Positions 42,168 to 59,087 of a stretch of DNA of 64,000 nt are shown here, one piece after another. This DNA comes from a phage, in NCBI GenBank assembly GCA_018175075.1, contig GCA_018175075.1_4100.1; one strand, written 5' to 3'. Numbering within the stretch: the first letter of the stretch is position 1; every line of letters starts with the position of its first letter. The notes beneath the pieces are model-generated. The model was not told where the DNA came from. It saw only the letters and a program-made list of their open reading frames with translations, and did no database searches. Both the position numbers and the translations under genes were made by a program.

Positions 42168-42196
42168 TTGACTTATTTTGTCAGTACTGGCATAAT
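42168..42196 (+). promoter_or_regulatory. sigma70-like promoter with no ORF downstream
   Basis: TTGACT, 17 nt, CATAAT; downstream is repeat element, not coding. Confidence 0.4.
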
Positions 42197-42219
42197 GTAT
42201 TCATTGGCAGATAAGCCGT

Positions 42220-42247
42220 AGCCCATAGGGTGCGGGAGTGTATCTAT
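42220..42247 (+). repeat. AGCCCA(N)AGGGTGC element, forward copy
   Basis: AGCCCATAGGGTGCGGGAGTGTATCTAT; inverted partner GCACCCGGTGGG at 42279-42290. Confidence 0.45.
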
Positions 42248-42384
42248 AGAAAAATTAGTTTAGTATAGTTACAATTGTGCACCCGGTGGGTTAGCTGTTG
42301 TCATGGGGTATATTATGCCAGTACTGGATAGTGCTGTCAATACTTTTTTAATATTCAGTACTGAAAACTATTTTTAAAAAGTAC

Positions 42385-47064: not shown

Positions 47065-47208
47065 ATGAAAACTTGTCAATGTGGTCAGAAATCTATTACT
47101 GGTTTAAAGCGGGGCGTTGCTCTTTGCCAGTACCATTATAATTTACAAGTATGGGGTAAAGAATGGGCCGACCAGGTGGAAGCAGCAAAGAAAGCAAAAA
47201 GTAAGTAA
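47065..47208 (+). CDS. small Cys-containing protein, 47 aa
   Basis: ATG with AAGGAAA RBS after leader hairpin; CQCG...CQYH; below track size cutoff. Confidence 0.45.
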   Translation: MKTCQCGQKSITGLKRGVALCQYHYNLQVWGKEWADQVEAAKKAKSK

Positions 47209-47227
47209 AAATATTATCACAGTACTA

Positions 47228-47256
47228 TTGACATAGTTTGATAGTACTGGCATAAT
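47228..47256 (+). promoter_or_regulatory. class-II promoter
   Basis: TTGACA, 17 nt, CATAAT within repeated AGTACTATTGACATAGTTTGATAGTACTGGCATAAT module. Confidence 0.55.
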
Positions 47257-47287
47257 AGATTTTATCAAAACAACTGAGGAAAATAAA

Positions 47288-47500
47288 ATGGCTATCATCA
47301 CTAAAATCAAAGTTAACAAGACTATCGTTAAACTGGCAGAAGTGAAAGAAGGTTATAAAGTATCTTGGTGCGGTATGTATCGGACGTTCGCAGATATAGA
47401 TGATGCAATCAATTACTACACTGACACGGTTAAAAACTTTGTTCGTGCTGATGTGGTTATGGCAGTGGCAACATATAAAGCAGCGAAAGAAAGTAAGTAA
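47288..47500 (+). CDS. hypothetical protein, 70 aa (paralog of 50419 gene)
   Basis: GAGGAAA RBS; MAII..K N-terminus. Confidence 0.55.
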   Translation: MAIITKIKVNKTIVKLAEVKEGYKVSWCGMYRTFADIDDAINYYTDTVKNFVRADVVMAVATYKAAKESK

Positions 47501-47519
47501 AAATATTATCACAGTACTA

Positions 47520-47548
47520 TTGACATAGTTTGATAGTACTGGCATAAT
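47520..47548 (+). promoter_or_regulatory. class-II promoter (duplicate module)
   Basis: TTGACA, 17 nt, CATAAT. Confidence 0.55.
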
Positions 47549-47589
47549 AGATTTTATCAAGACAACATATTAATTTAAGGAATACAAAA

Positions 47590-48871: not shown

Positions 48872-49018
48872 ATGAAAGCATCAAAAAAGAGTACTAACAA
48901 GAAAGCACGTTCAACCTTAGATGGGGTATTCCCTTTACGTTTCGTTGATGAAGTGGTTTCCTACCCGCCTGGCCTTACTCCTGAGATGGTAGAAAGTTTG
49001 CGTAAATCTAAAAAATAG
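48872..49018 (+). CDS. small basic protein, 48 aa
   Basis: ATG with AAGGAA RBS after leader hairpin; below track size cutoff. Confidence 0.45.
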   Translation: MKASKKSTNKKARSTLDGVFPLRFVDEVVSYPPGLTPEMVESLRKSKK

Positions 49019-49021
49019 TAC

Positions 49022-49081
49022 TTGCAATTAGTTTTTAGTACTGTATAATGTTTTACATGAAGGGGAGAAATGATTCTCCCC
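49022..49081 (+). promoter_or_regulatory. class-I early promoter plus leader hairpin
   Basis: TTGCAA, 16 nt, TATAAT, then GGGGAGAAATGATTCTCCCC. Confidence 0.6.
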
Positions 49082-49099
49082 AATAACAGGAGAAACAAA

Positions 49100-49252
49100 A
49101 TGAAACAATACAACGCTCGGTTTGATGTTACTATCGGTAACGGCAAAGGTCAATTCTCTTTCAGTACTCGCCGCAGTTATACAGAAAACTTCCTGCGTAA
49201 TTGTGCACTGACCGCCGCACAAATTAAACATTACTTTCAGGCTAAAAAATGA
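49100..49252 (+). CDS. hypothetical small protein, 50 aa
   Basis: ATG with AGGAGAAA RBS; track ORF 49070 starts inside hairpin loop. Confidence 0.5.
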   Translation: MKQYNARFDVTIGNGKGQFSFSTRRSYTENFLRNCALTAAQIKHYFQAKK

Positions 49253-49338: not shown

Positions 49339-49473
49339 ATGAATCCTAACGGTATAATTTACAGTACTCCTAAAACGAAAGCAGACAAGGTAAACGCTAA
49401 AAAAGCGAAAGTAAAGGAGTACATCAAGCAAGGCATGACGCGAAAGGCCGCAGTACTTAAAGCTAAAAAATAA
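49339..49473 (+). CDS. small basic protein, 44 aa
   Basis: TAAATG coupling; Lys-rich. Confidence 0.35.
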   Translation: MNPNGIIYSTPKTKADKVNAKKAKVKEYIKQGMTRKAAVLKAKK

Positions 49474-49484
49474 ATGAAAAAAGT

Positions 49485-49507
49485 GGTTGACTTCGGTCAG
49501 CCATTTT
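49485..49507 (+). terminator. rho-independent terminator
   Basis: GGTTGAC-TTCG-GTCAGCC hairpin then ATTTTG. Confidence 0.65.
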
Positions 49508-49539
49508 GCTATTATATATTCATTGAGAGATAGCTCACT

Positions 49540-49567
49540 AGCCCACAGGGTGCGGAAGTGTATCTAT
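49540..49567 (+). repeat. AGCCCACAGGGTGC element, forward copy
   Basis: AGCCCACAGGGTGCGGAAGTGTATCTAT between terminator and promoter. Confidence 0.45.
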
Positions 49568-50418: not shown

Positions 50419-50598
50419 ATGGCTATCATCGCAAAAACTGAAATCGTTGGTCTGGATTCTATCATCATGACGTTTGAAGATCAAAAAGGTATGTATGTAG
50501 TTTCATATGGTGATTATGTTCGGGAGTATGAAACGGTAGACGAAGCCTTTGAAAGTTATATTCGCCAGGTGAATAAAGCATACGACGACTACCGCTAA
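50419..50598 (+). CDS. hypothetical protein, 59 aa (paralog of 47288 gene)
   Basis: AAGGAA RBS; MAIIAK N-terminus; below track size cutoff. Confidence 0.5.
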   Translation: MAIIAKTEIVGLDSIIMTFEDQKGMYVVSYGDYVREYETVDEAFESYIRQVNKAYDDYR

Positions 50599-50616
50599 AA
50601 TATATTACCAGTACTA

Positions 50617-50644
50617 TTGACAACGTTTGATAGTACTGTATAAT
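50617..50644 (+). promoter_or_regulatory. class-II promoter variant
   Basis: TTGACA, 16 nt, TATAAT. Confidence 0.5.
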
Positions 50645-50688
50645 AAGTTTTATAAACAGTAGTTAACTTAACCTAAGAGAGAAATAAA

Positions 50689-50832
50689 ATGATCGCACTG
50701 GATTCATTCATCGACGCAGTACTGGCAAAAACTGGCGAGGATCTGACCGCAGAACAATACGCAATGATCGAGCAATGCCAGCAAGACGGTAAATCGGTGA
50801 AAGATACTGTTAAGATTATCCGCAAGATGTAA
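50689..50832 (+). CDS. hypothetical small protein, 47 aa
   Basis: ATG with AAGAGAG RBS; followed by terminator. Confidence 0.45.
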   Translation: MIALDSFIDAVLAKTGEDLTAEQYAMIEQCQQDGKSVKDTVKIIRKM

Positions 50833-50838
50833 TATTAT

Positions 50839-50866
50839 AGCCCACTGGTTAACGCTGGTGGGCTTT
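50839..50866 (+). terminator. terminator-like hairpin
   Basis: AGCCCAC...GTGGGCT hairpin then TTTAATT. Confidence 0.5.
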
Positions 50867-50937
50867 AATTCATTACCCTATACAATGCCAGTACTAAACC
50901 GTTTATCTCGTTAGAATGCATTACAGGACGTTTGACA

Positions 50938-51135
50938 ATGATTAGCATGAAATCAGTACAAAAACAAATAGAAACATTATCAAAAATTAAACGTAAACAG
51001 TACTCGTTAGAATATACAATCAATGGTAACTATCATCTAATGAAAGAAAATAATTTTATAGTCATTGATGAATCATTGCAAATCATTAGTATAGTACTGA
51101 AAGCATTAATTAATGATAGAAAAAAATTAAAATAA
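50938..51135 (+). CDS. hypothetical protein, about 65 aa (AT-rich)
   Basis: ORF; start ambiguous (track start 50932 is TTG). Confidence 0.35.
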   Translation: MISMKSVQKQIETLSKIKRKQYSLEYTINGNYHLMKENNFIVIDESLQIISIVLKALINDRKKLK

Positions 51136-51139
51136 TCTA

Positions 51140-51168
51140 TTGACAATATCCTCCAGTACTGGCATAAT
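51140..51168 (+). promoter_or_regulatory. sigma70-like promoter
   Basis: TTGACA, 17 nt, CATAAT. Confidence 0.5.
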
Positions 51169-51228
51169 ACTTACATCAAGACGAGAACGTCACTAACCCA
51201 TAGGGTGCACAAATGTAACTATATAACA

Positions 51229-51305
51229 TCGATCAATAAATGATCAAAAAAGTACTGGATCAATTTAGCATAAGGCGTATAATTCTGATCAATTCTTGAT
51301 CAAAG
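51229..51305. repeat. cluster of five TGATCAA (GATC) sites
   Basis: GATC at about 51231, 51242, 51258, 51287, 51298 in a non-coding leader. Confidence 0.5.
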
Positions 51306-51464
51306 GCAATATACGCAGTTGAATTTATATAGACAGTACAAAGGCGTTACTATCCGTGGTAATGCTGGTGGATATGTAGTATCATGTGGTTTGAATAAGA
51401 TTAGCACTAGTAGTATTATTGTAGCATTACAGTACTATAGTATTTTTATAATGAGGTTAAAATA

Positions 51465-51722
51465 ATGGCAGTAGGATACGCGAAAGACGGGGCCGAACAA
51501 GACGAGATTAACGCAGTGATTCAGGCCGCCGTTAACCACGCTAGAAAGCAAATTAACGCACAAAGAGAATCACTAGTACATTGCCTCGACTGCGGCGATA
51601 AAATCCCTGAGAATCGACGCCAGGCCGTTATAGGGTGCATGTATTGTATTACTTGCCAGGCGGATCATGATAGTACTTTTAAAAGAGATCCGCGTAATTG
51701 TTGGCATAGATCTATGAGATAA
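51465..51722 (+). CDS. TraR/DksA-family C4 zinc-finger protein, 85 aa
   Basis: C-x2-C-x17-C-x2-C (CLDCGDKIPENRR...CMYCITC) with RKQINAQR upstream, typical of TraR/DksA. Confidence 0.7.
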   Translation: MAVGYAKDGAEQDEINAVIQAAVNHARKQINAQRESLVHCLDCGDKIPENRRQAVIGCMYCITCQADHDSTFKRDPRNCWHRSMR

Positions 51723-51729
51723 AAAGTAA

Positions 51730-51757
51730 TTGACAGTACTGAAAGATAGTGTATAAT
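51730..51757 (+). promoter_or_regulatory. sigma70-like promoter
   Basis: TTGACA, 16 nt, TATAAT, GTTTTATATC. Confidence 0.55.
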
Positions 51758-51786
51758 GTTTTATATCTTAAATGAGGATAGAAATC

Positions 51787-52143
51787 ATGGGAATACAACA
51801 TATCACGCGTACTACTGACAATGGCGAGATCACTGGTTATCAGGTACAGGGCAAAGTAGCACAATTGCAGTACTGGTTTGTTAAACGTGGAATCATTGCA
51901 CCGGATCTTGATTATGACCGTGTTGCTTTCATTGATTCTCTTTATGTTGATCCTGATAGTCGGGGCAATGGTGAAGGTAACGAATTAATGAATGCCTTTA
52001 TCGATGCCGCCGATGATTCAGATTGTATCATCTTAGAATGCGATACGGGAGAAGATAACGCCTTTAATCTTAAAGAATGGTACGAAGGTTTCGGATTCGA
52101 GGTATTGATAGATAGTGAATATCCTATCATGATTTTATCATAG
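51787..52143 (+). CDS. putative GNAT-family acetyltransferase-like protein, 118 aa
   Basis: GAGGA RBS; SRGNGEGNELMNAFIDAA and WYEGFGFE resemble GNAT motifs. Confidence 0.45.
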   Translation: MGIQHITRTTDNGEITGYQVQGKVAQLQYWFVKRGIIAPDLDYDRVAFIDSLYVDPDSRGNGEGNELMNAFIDAADDSDCIILECDTGEDNAFNLKEWYEGFGFEVLIDSEYPIMILS

Positions 52144-52146
52144 TAC

Positions 52147-52203
52147 TTGCATTTAGTTTTCAGTACTGTTATAGTACTTACATCAAGGGGAAACATCTTC
52201 CCC
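52147..52203 (+). promoter_or_regulatory. class-I early promoter plus leader hairpin
   Basis: TTGCAT, 17 nt, TATAGT, then GGGGAAACATCTTCCCC. Confidence 0.55.
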
Positions 52204-52221
52204 TACTAAGAGGAAATGAAA

Positions 52222-52410
52222 ATGGAAAACTTATCAAGTATTTTAGTACAAGATGATTTCGGTAATCCTGGAAGTGCTATCATAGTTCGGGGCAATAAAG
52301 CAACGTTTGTTATTGCTGGTGGACCCGTACAGCGTAGCATTAAAAATAATGCTGTTACCATTAATAATGTACGCTATCGCTTAGATAAAGAATTAATTCA
52401 TAAACTGTAA
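52222..52410 (+). CDS. hypothetical protein, 62 aa
   Basis: ATG with AAGAGGAAA RBS (alternative start 52216). Confidence 0.5.
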   Translation: MENLSSILVQDDFGNPGSAIIVRGNKATFVIAGGPVQRSIKNNAVTINNVRYRLDKELIHKL

Positions 52411-52437
52411 TATTAATTTAATAGAGGATAACAATAA

Positions 52438-52761
52438 ATGTACATTCATACTACTATCACAAAGGAAGTCCGTTGCCAGTTCGAAAGTATTCCGGGCGTA
52501 TGTTTCATCACTGGTACGTTTTCCCCTGGTGATCGTGATAATCCAGTACTGTTACAATTACGCCATCCATCATGGGATAAAGCATTTGATCTACCGTTGA
52601 ATGAATTCGCAACTACTGCTGAAAAGTACATTAAAAATATTCGCGAGAATGATCGACTATTCATTAATGCTTTTAGTGATTCCGCGTTAAGCGAGATCCA
52701 CGGTGTATTGGTTGCAATCATGGAATCAATGGAGAAAACTAAATTCAAACAAGGTGAATAA
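52438..52761 (+). CDS. hypothetical protein, 107 aa
   Basis: ATG with AGAGGA RBS. Confidence 0.55.
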   Translation: MYIHTTITKEVRCQFESIPGVCFITGTFSPGDRDNPVLLQLRHPSWDKAFDLPLNEFATTAEKYIKNIRENDRLFINAFSDSALSEIHGVLVAIMESMEKTKFKQGE

Positions 52762-53317: not shown

Positions 53318-53463
53318 AAGAATTCTTATTCGAAGTAGTGTTTCAAGGTGTCGGTAGTAACCAACTGATTCGATCAAGTGGTTACAATGTCAACCAGGCA
53401 TGGAATAACATTAAACAAATGTACCCGAACGCTATCACCTATCGCAACCCGAAAGAAGTTTAA
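53314..53463 (+). CDS. hypothetical small protein, 49 aa
   Basis: ATGA overlap with upstream stop; followed by terminator. Confidence 0.4.
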   Translation: MKEFLFEVVFQGVGSNQLIRSSGYNVNQAWNNIKQMYPNAITYRNPKEV

Positions 53464-53477
53464 AAATAATTGAAAAA

Positions 53478-53502
53478 GGGATTGACTCCGGTCAGTCCCT
53501 TT
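53478..53502 (+). terminator. rho-independent terminator
   Basis: GGGATTGACTCCGGTCAGTCCC hairpin then TTT. Confidence 0.65.
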
Positions 53503-53529
53503 GCTATTATATACGCATAGAAACAAATC

Positions 53530-53557
53530 AGCCCACCGGGTGCATAAATGTATCTAT
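53530..53557 (+). repeat. AGCCCACCGGGTGC element, forward copy
   Basis: AGCCCACCGGGTGCATAAATGTATCTAT, followed by GCTGGTGG. Confidence 0.45.
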
Positions 53558-56146: not shown

Positions 56147-56731
56147 ATGCGTAATTATACTAAATTCATCCGTACACTGTCAGAAATGGAAACCAACAAA
56201 GAGATCCTTTCAGCTTGTCGGTTAGCTGGCCTGGAGATCATCGGGGCGGGATCTTCCCGTATAGTTTTCGCTTTAAATGATCGGTTAGTGATTAAGGTCG
56301 CGAATTGTGATGCGGGTGTAGAACAAAATGAAACTGAATGTAAGGTATGGAATTTTTTAGACTATGACCGCCCTCAGTTGAAACAGTACTTTGCAAAGGT
56401 GCATATGCATTTATGCGATCCTGATAATATGTTTATCGTTATGGATCGGTTGAGTACTGCAAGCAAAGGCAGTGTGAAGCACGTTAACGCGTGCAATGAA
56501 TTAAAGTACAATATTAAACGTAATGCAATCGAACGCCAGCACCGCTTTGCTGATGCACTACAACACGTTGATGATACATTATCAACACTAACGATAAGAG
56601 ATATCAGAAAACAGAATATCGGCCAGGATCGTAATGGACTTATTAAAGTACTTGATTACGGTTTAACCCGCAATATCTGGAATCAGTACTATAAAAAGCG
56701 TGATGTAGCAGCAAGTAAGGTAACACGATAA
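56147..56731 (+). CDS. putative protein-kinase-like protein, 194 aa
   Basis: AAGGAG RBS; Gly-loop-like IIGAGSSRIV, VIKVA, catalytic-loop-like RDIRKQNIG and LDYG (DFG-like). Confidence 0.5.
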   Translation: MRNYTKFIRTLSEMETNKEILSACRLAGLEIIGAGSSRIVFALNDRLVIKVANCDAGVEQNETECKVWNFLDYDRPQLKQYFAKVHMHLCDPDNMFIVMDRLSTASKGSVKHVNACNELKYNIKRNAIERQHRFADALQHVDDTLSTLTIRDIRKQNIGQDRNGLIKVLDYGLTRNIWNQYYKKRDVAASKVTR

Positions 56732-56746
56732 AAAAGATTAAAAAAG

Positions 56747-56771
56747 GGATTGACTCCGGTCAGTCCCTTTG
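56747..56771 (+). terminator. rho-independent terminator
   Basis: GGGATTGACTCCGGTCAGTCCC hairpin then TTT. Confidence 0.65.
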
Positions 56772-56802
56772 CTATTATATATTCATTGAGAGATAACTCA
56801 CT

Positions 56803-56830
56803 GACCCATAGGGTGCATAAGTGTATCTAT
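56803..56830 (+). repeat. AGCCCA(N)AGGGTGC element, forward copy
   Basis: GACCCATAGGGTGCATAAGTGTATCTAT. Confidence 0.45.
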
Positions 56831-58990: not shown

Positions 58991-59009
58991 CAAAAAAAGA
59001 ATAAAAAAA

Positions 59010-59034
59010 GGGATTGACTCCGGTCAGTCCCTTT
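59010..59034 (+). terminator. rho-independent terminator
   Basis: GGGATTGACTCCGGTCAGTCCC hairpin then TTT. Confidence 0.65.
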
Positions 59035-59061
59035 GCTATTATATACGCATAGACAAAAACT

Positions 59062-59087
59062 AGCCCACAGGGTGCATAAGTGTATCC
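59062..59087 (+). repeat. AGCCCACAGGGTGC element, forward copy
   Basis: AGCCCACAGGGTGCATAAGTGTATCC, followed by GCTGGTGG at 59122. Confidence 0.45.

Follow-up and report, generated by a model that had tools for sequence, protein, structure and literature searches.

The gene at positions 51465-51722 encodes an 85-aa C4 zinc-finger protein of the TraR/DksA family, which belongs to a phage clade of the YbiI-like subfamily and not to TraR proper. [quoted passage not shown] We infer RNA polymerase binding, the direction of its effect and the early timing: the zinc-finger protein probably binds the host enzyme, although part of the motif on which TraR depends is missing, and binding in the secondary channel combined with a shift away from host promoters is plausible. 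The window, i.e., the whole stretch of 64,000 nucleotides that was analysed, is Asteriusvirus DNA, from a jumbo coliphage of the 121Q/PBECO4 type. Over the 1.4 kb that surround the gene, the identity is 97.9% to Escherichia phages WPEC5, Ecwhy_1, fEgEco12 and JNE01, and 92% to 121Q. The gene is already known, being publicly annotated in near-identical GenBank genomes under the labels 'DksA-like zinc-finger protein', 'TraR/DksA C4-type zinc finger protein' and 'C-4 type zinc finger protein', the last of which is that of 121Q gene 294.

The gene and its product have the following features:

51465-51722, + strand: zinc-finger gene, ATG start, TAA stop, 85 aa; TraR/DksA-family (YbiI-like) C4 protein.
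51453-51456, + strand: Shine-Dalgarno sequence GAGG of the zinc-finger gene, read from the sequence, 8 nt 5' of the ATG.
51465-51500, + strand: N-terminal motif MAVG(Y/F)AKDGAEQ, subfamily-specific, occupying the place of the TraR DxxDxA tip.
51582-51656, + strand: C4 zinc ribbon (C40, C43, C61, C64), including IPENRR at 51603-51620.
51678-51719, + strand: basic C-terminal tail FKRDPRNCWHRSMR, specific to the phage clade and invariant in the alignment; TraR has none.

The coordinates and strand that the first-pass annotation gave for this ORF are exact, and the C4 finger that it described, with IPENRR between the cysteine pairs, is present. The complete product is MAVGYAKDGAEQDEINAVIQAAVNHARKQINAQRESLVHCLDCGDKIPENRRQAVIGCMYCITCQADHDSTFKRDPRNCWHRSMR. 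Its cysteines are arranged as C40-x2-C43-x17-C61-x2-C64, which is the spacing of TraR, the stretch I47-P-E-N-R-R52 lies between the two pairs, and all four cysteines are invariant among 49 homologs. The GAGG sequence is kept in all relatives that bear the 330-bp upstream cassette described below. Five Asteriusvirus copies of the gene gave dN/dS values of 0.09-0.22, and the comparison to T4-like copies showed saturation of synonymous sites; the gene is under purifying selection. The reading as a chance ORF, or as a decaying functionless remnant, has the small size and nothing else in its favour and is exceedingly improbable: the HMM E-values are strong, the full length is preserved in Asteriusvirus, in other jumbo phages and in several T4-like genera at 62-94% identity, dN/dS is far under 1, and the ATG is preceded by a good Shine-Dalgarno sequence. 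We dropped this reading as effectively refuted already by the HMM, conservation and dN/dS evidence.

The placement in the TraR/DksA family, which had also been proposed beforehand, withstood both the profile and the fold tests. The Pfam model PF01258 (zf-dskA_traR) matched residues 39-68 with 36.4 bits (E = 5.3e-9), above its curated gathering cut-off of 24.9 bits, and PHROG_54 'DksA-like zinc-finger protein' matched with E = 1e-18. The top NCBIfam model was the YbiI equivalog NF008243/PRK11019, with 79.3 bits over residues 1-73 and a cut-off of 96 bits that was not reached. The scores also stayed below the cut-offs of TIGR02419, 'phage/conjugal plasmid C-4 zinc finger, TraR family' (C4_traR_proteo; 48.7 versus 59.7 bits), of the TraR equivalog NF010268 (33.6 versus 108 bits) and of the DksA_like model NF033459 (12.3 versus 105 bits); therefore, the zinc-finger protein lies under every curated subfamily threshold. 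Among PDB sequences, YbiI (2KGO) matched with E = 1e-11, followed by RNA polymerase-bound TraR (5W1S and 6N57) with E = 2e-6. The AlphaFold2 (AF2) model, for which the 49 homologs served as input and which has a mean pLDDT of 71, predicts a helix (residues 6-29), a C4 zinc ribbon and a second helix (62-72), to be compared with the three elements of TraR at 2-27, 28-57 and 58-73. The Foldseek search of this model against the PDB ranked YbiI 2KGO first, followed by TraR 6N57_M, two 5W1S chains, chlamydial Dks and DksA; the probability was 0.99-1.0 for YbiI 2KGO and TraR 6N57/5W1S, and the DksA match was marginal (E ~0.3). The weak, sub-threshold Pfam matches to Cystatin and KDM6_GATAL were rejected as noise, and a PADLOC match to the candidate defence-system model PDC-S64 (14.5 bits) was treated as insignificant.

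Homologs with 62-73% identity were found in the jumbo phages Klebsiella fENko-Kae01, Salmonella PHA46 and Erwinia Hallingskeid, as well as in T4-like phages of Citrobacter (Moon, Merlin), Escherichia (dhaeg, VR5), Yersinia (MHG19, fHe-Yen9-01), Enterobacter and Kosakonia. In Merlin and dhaeg, the homolog lies in the tk-rI-mobD small-gene region and overlaps the stop of the preceding small ORF. Bacterial YbiI-type proteins (88 aa) are 42-58% identical to the phage protein. When 1.8 billion cluster representatives were searched with a profile, 2427 relatives were found at E <= 1e-3 and only one representative of the phage clade at E <= 1e-30; therefore, the phage clade is compact. In the 50%-identity library, this clade is the single representative P0029 (E = 1e-38), and the 88-aa YbiI-type proteins come next (E ~1e-29).

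By both sequence and structure (PRK11019, 2KGO), the closest known protein is E. coli YbiI (88 aa). It shares with the phage protein the MAxG(F/W/Y)AxDGAxQ start, the CxxC-N17-CxxC finger, the IPExRR motif and a conserved basic tail that ends in ...S-x-(L/M)-R; however, the identity of the two proteins is only 38%, the tail reads RNCWHRSMR in the phage protein and NRRGSKDSQLR in YbiI, and YbiI is encoded on the bacterial chromosome, whereas the zinc-finger gene is carried by virulent phages. Overexpression of YbiI rescues the amino-acid auxotrophy of delta-dksA, a result given as data not shown by authors who suspected a role of YbiI in iron metabolism (PMC2613031). This rescue is the only functional datum for the YbiI-like subfamily. 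With DksA (151 aa, ppGpp cofactor), the phage protein shares the Pfam zinc-finger family and the presumed site on RNA polymerase; it has no ppGpp-binding residues to speak of, and the features of DksA proper are absent from its 85 aa, which contain one N-terminal helix and no two-helix coiled coil of ~150 aa with ppGpp site 2 residues.

The third comparison is to TraR and its tested phage homologs (lambda Orf73, P2 Orf82, VP882 Orf61, VHML Orf8 and X. bovienii Gp34). Three functional elements are distinguished in TraR (PMC9239242, PMC6970531): (i) the N-terminal helix, which places the DxxDxA tip at the active site, and in which D3 and D6 are needed for activity, while being dispensable for binding; (ii) the zinc globular domain, in which R48 contacts the beta' rim helices, whereas E46, R49 and K50 contact Si3; (iii) the C-terminal helix, which touches beta lobe-Si1. 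All five tested phage homologs of TraR bind RNA polymerase, and DxxDxA is required in TraR and in lambda Orf73, where D3N and D6N lower the activity (PMC9239242). X. bovienii Gp34, a TraR homolog without D3, binds RNA polymerase and is active but weaker, and the same study stresses that DksA-like action is not general among C4 zinc-finger homologs (PMC9239242). The predicted architecture of the phage protein is that of TraR, in that the C4 zinc globular domain follows a long N-terminal helix and precedes a C-terminal one, and, as in the TraR group, its gene is located on a mobile element or phage amid small early genes. It differs in the absence of a strict DxxDxA, with an aromatic or unalignable residue at the position of the first Asp, in a shorter C-terminal helix followed by an additional invariant tail, and in its carrier, which is an obligately lytic jumbo phage here and a temperate phage or plasmid in the TraR group.

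In the globular domain, hhalign placed residues 21-71 on TraR 18-68 with no gaps and 98.5% probability, so that E49, R51 and R52 correspond to TraR E46, R48 and R49. Among the 49 homologs, R51 and R52 are invariant and E49 is nearly invariant. This element of TraR is thus conserved in the zinc-finger protein.

The N-terminus is different. The strict DxxDxA, searched for as D..D.A on the N-terminal side of the zinc finger, is absent from the zinc-finger protein and from 163 of the 167 C4-bearing family sequences examined, and hhalign found no TraR alignment for residues 1-20. Only D8-G-A10 is kept of this motif, its counterpart being TraR D6-E-A8; D8 stands 31-33 residues ahead of the first cysteine, compared to 31 for TraR D6, and the position of TraR D3 would correspond to the aromatic residue 5. 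The motif that takes this place is strongly conserved in its own right: M1, A2, G4, G9 and Q12 are invariant, and A6, K7, D8 and A10 nearly so, in the 49 sequences. In the form MAxG(F/W/Y)A(K/R)DGA(V/E)Q, the N-terminus is nearly invariant throughout the YbiI-like subfamily, and MAxG(F/W/Y)AxDGAxQ is present in 104 of the 167 family sequences, the zinc-finger protein included. The N-terminus is four residues longer than that of TraR and contains the invariant G4 and G9; these additions could alter the reach of the tip to the active site. The AF2 confidence at the tip is low (pLDDT about 52). Because the globular contacts are present and DxxDxA is not, TraR-like function is likely but not assured. 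The suggestion in the first-pass annotation that the protein could reprogram host transcription through the secondary channel is thus reasonable, though on weaker ground than it implied.

This combination bears on the first of two alternatives to a TraR-like mechanism, namely that the protein binds in the secondary channel without acting like TraR: with its aromatic-Asp tip and basic tail, it would mainly occupy the channel and exclude DksA, GreA and GreB from it, or it would be a general host shut-off factor with a different mode of polymerase inhibition. Such an action is compatible with the conservation of the rim-helix binding residues and the lack of the active-site tip motif, given that the tip aspartates of DksA are needed for function and not for binding (PMC9239242). 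Moreover, the N-terminal motif and the C-terminal tail are invariant and subfamily-specific, and therefore imply a distinct, constrained interface. Conversely, the reported complementation of delta-dksA by overexpressed YbiI suggests DksA-like activity over mere blocking, and we regard this alternative as distinctly unlikely.

At the other end of the protein, the predicted C-terminal helix comprises 11 residues (62-72) versus 16 in TraR, with confidence dropping along the helix, and is followed by a conserved non-helical tail. This tail, FKRxPRNCWHRSMR, is invariant throughout the phage clade. The YbiI tail GYNRRGSKDSQLR is not present in the zinc-finger protein, which has FKRxPRNCWHRSMR instead; from the sequences, the phage tail looks like a variant of this equally conserved YbiI tail. 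Among the 167 family sequences with the C4 motif, 38 have RNCWHR, 56 have RRGSxDS and 73 have other tails.

The second alternative is that the protein is a YbiI-like zinc-ribbon protein with a target other than RNA polymerase, so that the likeness to TraR would reflect shared ancestry only, and the basic tail might be a binding site for nucleic acid or for a different protein of the host or the phage, or the protein might have a metal-related role. The scores below the equivalog cut-offs of all curated TraR and YbiI models fit this possibility, as do the missing functional tip motif, the faint PDC-S64 match of 14.5 bits and the lack of an established physiological role for YbiI; in addition, according to the literature, C4 homologs show no DksA activity if both DxxDxA and the C-terminal helix are missing. 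However, the TraR residues E46, R48 and R49, which contact RNA polymerase, are exactly preserved, the protein matches TraR in its three-element architecture and in helix length, and YbiI complements delta-dksA. We consider a target other than RNA polymerase possible, although on the whole unlikely.

The TraR-like reading, which we prefer, also draws on the genomic context of the gene. The locus lies ~11-12 kb within a direct terminal repeat of ~21 kb (vB_Ec-M-J, and fEgEco12 with ~11.5 kb), which has been verified experimentally by restriction mapping in fEgEco12. Asteriusvirus genomes are reported to have a phage sigma factor, and no RNA polymerase has been reported for them; therefore, it is presumed that they depend on the host core enzyme during the whole infection. 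The zinc-finger gene belongs to a block of short + strand genes, nearly all of which have their own near-consensus sigma-70 promoter of the type AAAAAGTACTTGCA-N16-TATAAT or TTGACA-N16/17-TATAAT; most of these promoters precede a 5'-UTR hairpin of the form GGGGAGAAATGATTCTCCCC. We counted 36 near-consensus sigma-70 promoters between 39.4 and 63 kb, and their 7-nt discriminators have an average GC content of 27%. The phage promoters include those at 51140 and 51730. Promoters that are sensitive to DksA or TraR have GC-rich discriminators and short-lived open complexes. From this general knowledge, a TraR-like factor is expected to inhibit rRNA and ribosomal-protein promoters, and the phage promoters should resist it or be stimulated by it. 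Our search of the literature for early promoters or transcriptomics of Asteriusvirus and for 'DksA-like' proteins in jumbo phages found nothing useful.

In the proposed mechanism, the protein would be expressed early by the host sigma-70 RNA polymerase from the gene block in the terminal repeat. Its long N-terminal helix would enter the secondary channel of E. coli RNA polymerase, and E49, R51 and R52 would hold its zinc ribbon on the beta' rim helices and on Si3. Open complexes would be destabilised at kinetically fragile host promoters, such as those of rRNA and ribosomal proteins, and the near-consensus phage promoters with AT-rich discriminators would escape this effect or gain from it. 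Resources would thereby be diverted as demonstrated for TraR and lambda Orf73; lambda Orf73 has been shown to divert transcription from host ribosome synthesis to the phage, and the same has been proposed for further phage homologs. It should be noted that we counted the family, the fold, the contact residues, the spacing of D8-x-A10, the activity of Gp34, the rescue by YbiI, the RNA polymerase binding of the tested phage homologs, the presence in the phage group of a sigma factor only, the surrounding promoters, the terminal-repeat location and the dN/dS values for this mechanism, and the missing DxxDxA, the unalignable first 20 residues, the N-terminal extension with its two glycines, the short C-terminal helix with its different tail, the sub-cut-off TraR, TIGR02419 and YbiI scores and the caution on C4 homologs in PMC9239242 against it.

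The DNA 5' of the gene was analysed separately. The gap at 51136-51464 (329 bp) is the longest in the gene block; in vB_Ec-M-J, whose annotated homologous block served as a yardstick, half of the gaps are shorter than about 85 bp (median). The first-pass annotation had described an unusually long leader containing a GATC cluster; the length stands, whereas the notion of a simple untranslated leader does not, since the segment has one or more promoters and an ORF of its own. It contains the following features:

51127-51135 (left) and 51457-51465 (right), + strand: 9-bp direct repeat TTAAAATAA flanking the cassette.
51140-51168, + strand: P1, a sigma-70-type promoter TTGACA-17-(TG)CATAAT, 11/12 consensus positions, extended TG; predicted transcription start near 51175.
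51190-51222, + strand: promoter-proximal conserved box (repeat family D20), with the core CCCATAGGGTGC at 51197-51208.
51247-51283: second promoter-like site, a copy of repeat family D6, with the -10 TATAAT at 51278-51283; predicted transcription start near 51290.
51231-51301: GATC cluster, five GATCAA, straddling the second promoter-like site.
51319-51465, + strand: candidate 48-codon ORF, TTG start, with a stop that overlaps the zinc-finger ATG (TAATG).

In phAPEC6, ECO103 4-12-1 and Sharanji, the match to the window is limited to the coding part and the cassette is absent. In phAPEC6, there is a single TTAAAATAATGG junction, at which the stop of a 65-aa upstream gene overlaps the start of the zinc-finger gene (TAATG). 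From these sequence comparisons, the 330-bp segment is an insertion/deletion polymorphism among sister phages. The strong promoter P1 stands at the start of the cassette and is kept in vB_Ec-M-J, ELP-22 and SD-2_S15. The conserved box, CCCATAGGGTGC-N2-AAATGTAACTAT, is located about 30 nt 3' of P1, and a regex census found about 10 copies of it in the window, on both strands, each behind a sigma-70-like promoter. Two copies run directly into intrinsic terminators (window - strand, 44711; Klebsiella phage RaK2) and look like stand-alone units of about 100 nt. RNAalifold of 11 box copies showed only an invariant 4-bp hairpin and no compensatory changes; we found no support for the box as a structured RNA, in the absence of covariation and of an Rfam match. 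Rfam searches of the whole window at gathering thresholds, and of 51000-51800 at E up to 10, gave nothing relevant, the tRNA/tmRNA search found none, and a consensus scan of 50500-52500 detected no intrinsic terminator. Folding of the 300-nt upstream region gave z = -2.7 compared to shuffles, a value that is suggestive and not diagnostic.

The GATC cluster reported in the first-pass annotation is real: it is the densest in the window, with five GATC sites in 70 bp, a number that was not reached in any of 300 first-order Markov simulations. One of the sites is at the -35 position (TGGATC here, the better TTGATC in ELP-22), and two form the arms of a 7-bp hairpin, TGATCAA-TTC-TTGATCA (51286-51302), which stands where other genes of the block have the 5'-UTR hairpin. 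The diverged ELP-22 haplotype keeps four GATC sites in 35 bp. The Asteriusvirus group encodes an N6-adenine methyltransferase. Methylation-dependent control via the cluster is speculation.

The start codon of the 48-codon ORF is TTG in the window, and ELP-22 and SD-2_S15 have GTG. No stop interrupts its frame in any of the four haplotypes despite a nucleotide identity of 75%, compared to 5-7 stops in the other two frames; 19 of the 37 differences fall in third codon positions, and dN/dS is 0.32. The ORF has a full-length match to phrog_38664 (E = 3e-32) and a poor ribosome-binding site (AAGG ~12 nt from the start). On these sequence features, that the ORF is a small gene is plausible but unproven. 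A role of its product as a partner of the zinc-finger protein is conceivable, because the TraR homolog of VP882 works in a complex with QisA, a small co-encoded protein (bioRxiv 10.64898/2026.07.27.740977). The upstream neighbour varies between phage groups, which we counted against such a role: we looked for a conserved upstream partner, and inspection by eye showed no relationship among the proteins encoded upstream in Merlin, dhaeg, fENko-Kae01 and the window; therefore, there is no conserved two-gene cassette across the phage groups.

A more far-reaching reading, which we consider quite improbable, is that the phage clade (Asteriusvirus and related jumbo phages, and T4-like phages such as Moonvirus and Dhakavirus) would form a functionally distinct, YbiI-derived effector class of obligately lytic phages, marked by the aromatic-Asp tip and the invariant basic tail RNCWHRSMR. 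In some Asteriusvirus genomes, the gene would have gained the 330-bp segment as a mobile expression cassette, and with it a promoter sensitive to Dam/GATC and a 48-aa partner coupled to it in translation. The target would be the host RNA polymerase or another one, acted on in a manner unlike that of TraR; the partner part of this reading follows the analogy with the complex of QisA and TraR(VP882).

The gene itself is a routine, already-annotated family member. The added value of the analysis lies in its being YbiI-like rather than TraR-like, and in the identification of the 'leader' as an indel cassette with one or more promoters and a candidate small ORF. If the protein is TraR-like, ppGpp-independent hijacking of the host RNA polymerase would extend to obligately lytic jumbo phages and T4-like phages, and the phage protein would offer a handle on the function of the widespread bacterial YbiI subfamily, which has the same non-canonical tip.

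Nearly all small genes on the + strand between 44000 and 60000 share a single expression cassette, in which an A-tract is followed by AGTACTTGCA (the -35 element), a 16-nt spacer, TATAAT, GTTTTACATC, a hairpin in the 5'-UTR, a Shine-Dalgarno sequence and ATG. The 5'-UTR hairpin is GC-rich (GGGGAGAAATGATTCTCCCC), and the cassette is present in at least 18 copies, which belong to the repeat families D1-D5, D14 and D18. Another promoter-containing repeat, family D9, consists of two copies that are 99% identical and 292 bp apart; judged from the sequence, this pair suggests that a promoter or gene unit was recently duplicated in tandem at this locus. The repeated and neighboring elements are as follows.

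Promoter and gene elements
49015-49102: example of the small-gene expression cassette
47198-47274 and 47490-47566: 77-nt promoter-containing copies, family D9
49467-49559, 53462-53554, 56730-56822 and 58994-59086: 93-nt module, present four times
51787-52143: small GNAT-family acetyltransferase gene, directly downstream of the zinc-finger gene (Pfam Acetyltransf_1, 37 bits)

The early-promoter consensus, AAAAAGTACTTGCA and AGTACTGTATAAT, includes the palindromic hexamer AGTACT (ScaI site), which is also frequent outside this consensus. Across the 64 kb, we found 283 occurrences compared to approximately 22 expected from base composition, i.e., an excess of about 13-fold. The density is highest at 36000-62000, and enrichment is found in all 4-kb bins except for the last one (60-64 kb).

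Upstream of the TraR/DksA-family zinc-finger gene, a 330-bp segment (51127-51465) lies between copies of the 9-bp direct repeat TTAAAATAA. This segment is found here and in the related phages vB_Ec-M-J, ELP-22 and SD-2_S15, and is precisely absent from phAPEC6, ECO103 4-12-1 and Sharanji. The acetyltransferase gene has its own predicted consensus promoter (51730-51757); it appears to be missing from Salmonella phage SD-2_S15, because the annotation of that phage has a hypothetical ORF of 189 nt in its place.

The 93-nt module has a terminator-like appearance, because its T-rich stretch is preceded by the perfect hairpin AAAGGGATTGAC-TCCG-GTCAGTCCCTTT. The -35 element (TTGACT) of a promoter with the -10 element TATTAT also lies within it, and therefore it looks like a terminator and a promoter combined in one sequence.

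A further family, the promoter-proximal boxes, includes approximately 10 members on both strands of the window. The box is CCCAYNGGGTGC followed by N2-AA(G/A)TGTA(T/A)CTAT, and each copy is located approximately 25-35 nt 3' of a sigma-70-like -10 element.

Promoter-proximal box starts
42222, 49542, 51197, 53532, 56805 and 59064: + strand
44711, 42290, 40354 and 40139: - strand

At 42192-42320, two boxes on opposite strands face each other with 68 nt between them, each preceded by its own predicted promoter. Transcripts from these promoters would be antisense to each other, and a read-through transcript is predicted to fold into a long hairpin (-41.6 kcal/mol).

Comparison of the boxes to Rfam yielded no match, and a search for covariation in them found none. 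Intrinsic terminators directly follow the 44711 (-) copy and one that Klebsiella phage RaK2 carries (L008, about 669), suggesting small transcription units of approximately 100 nt. The promoter-proximal box is a candidate for an sRNA, or for a nut-like or other regulatory site.
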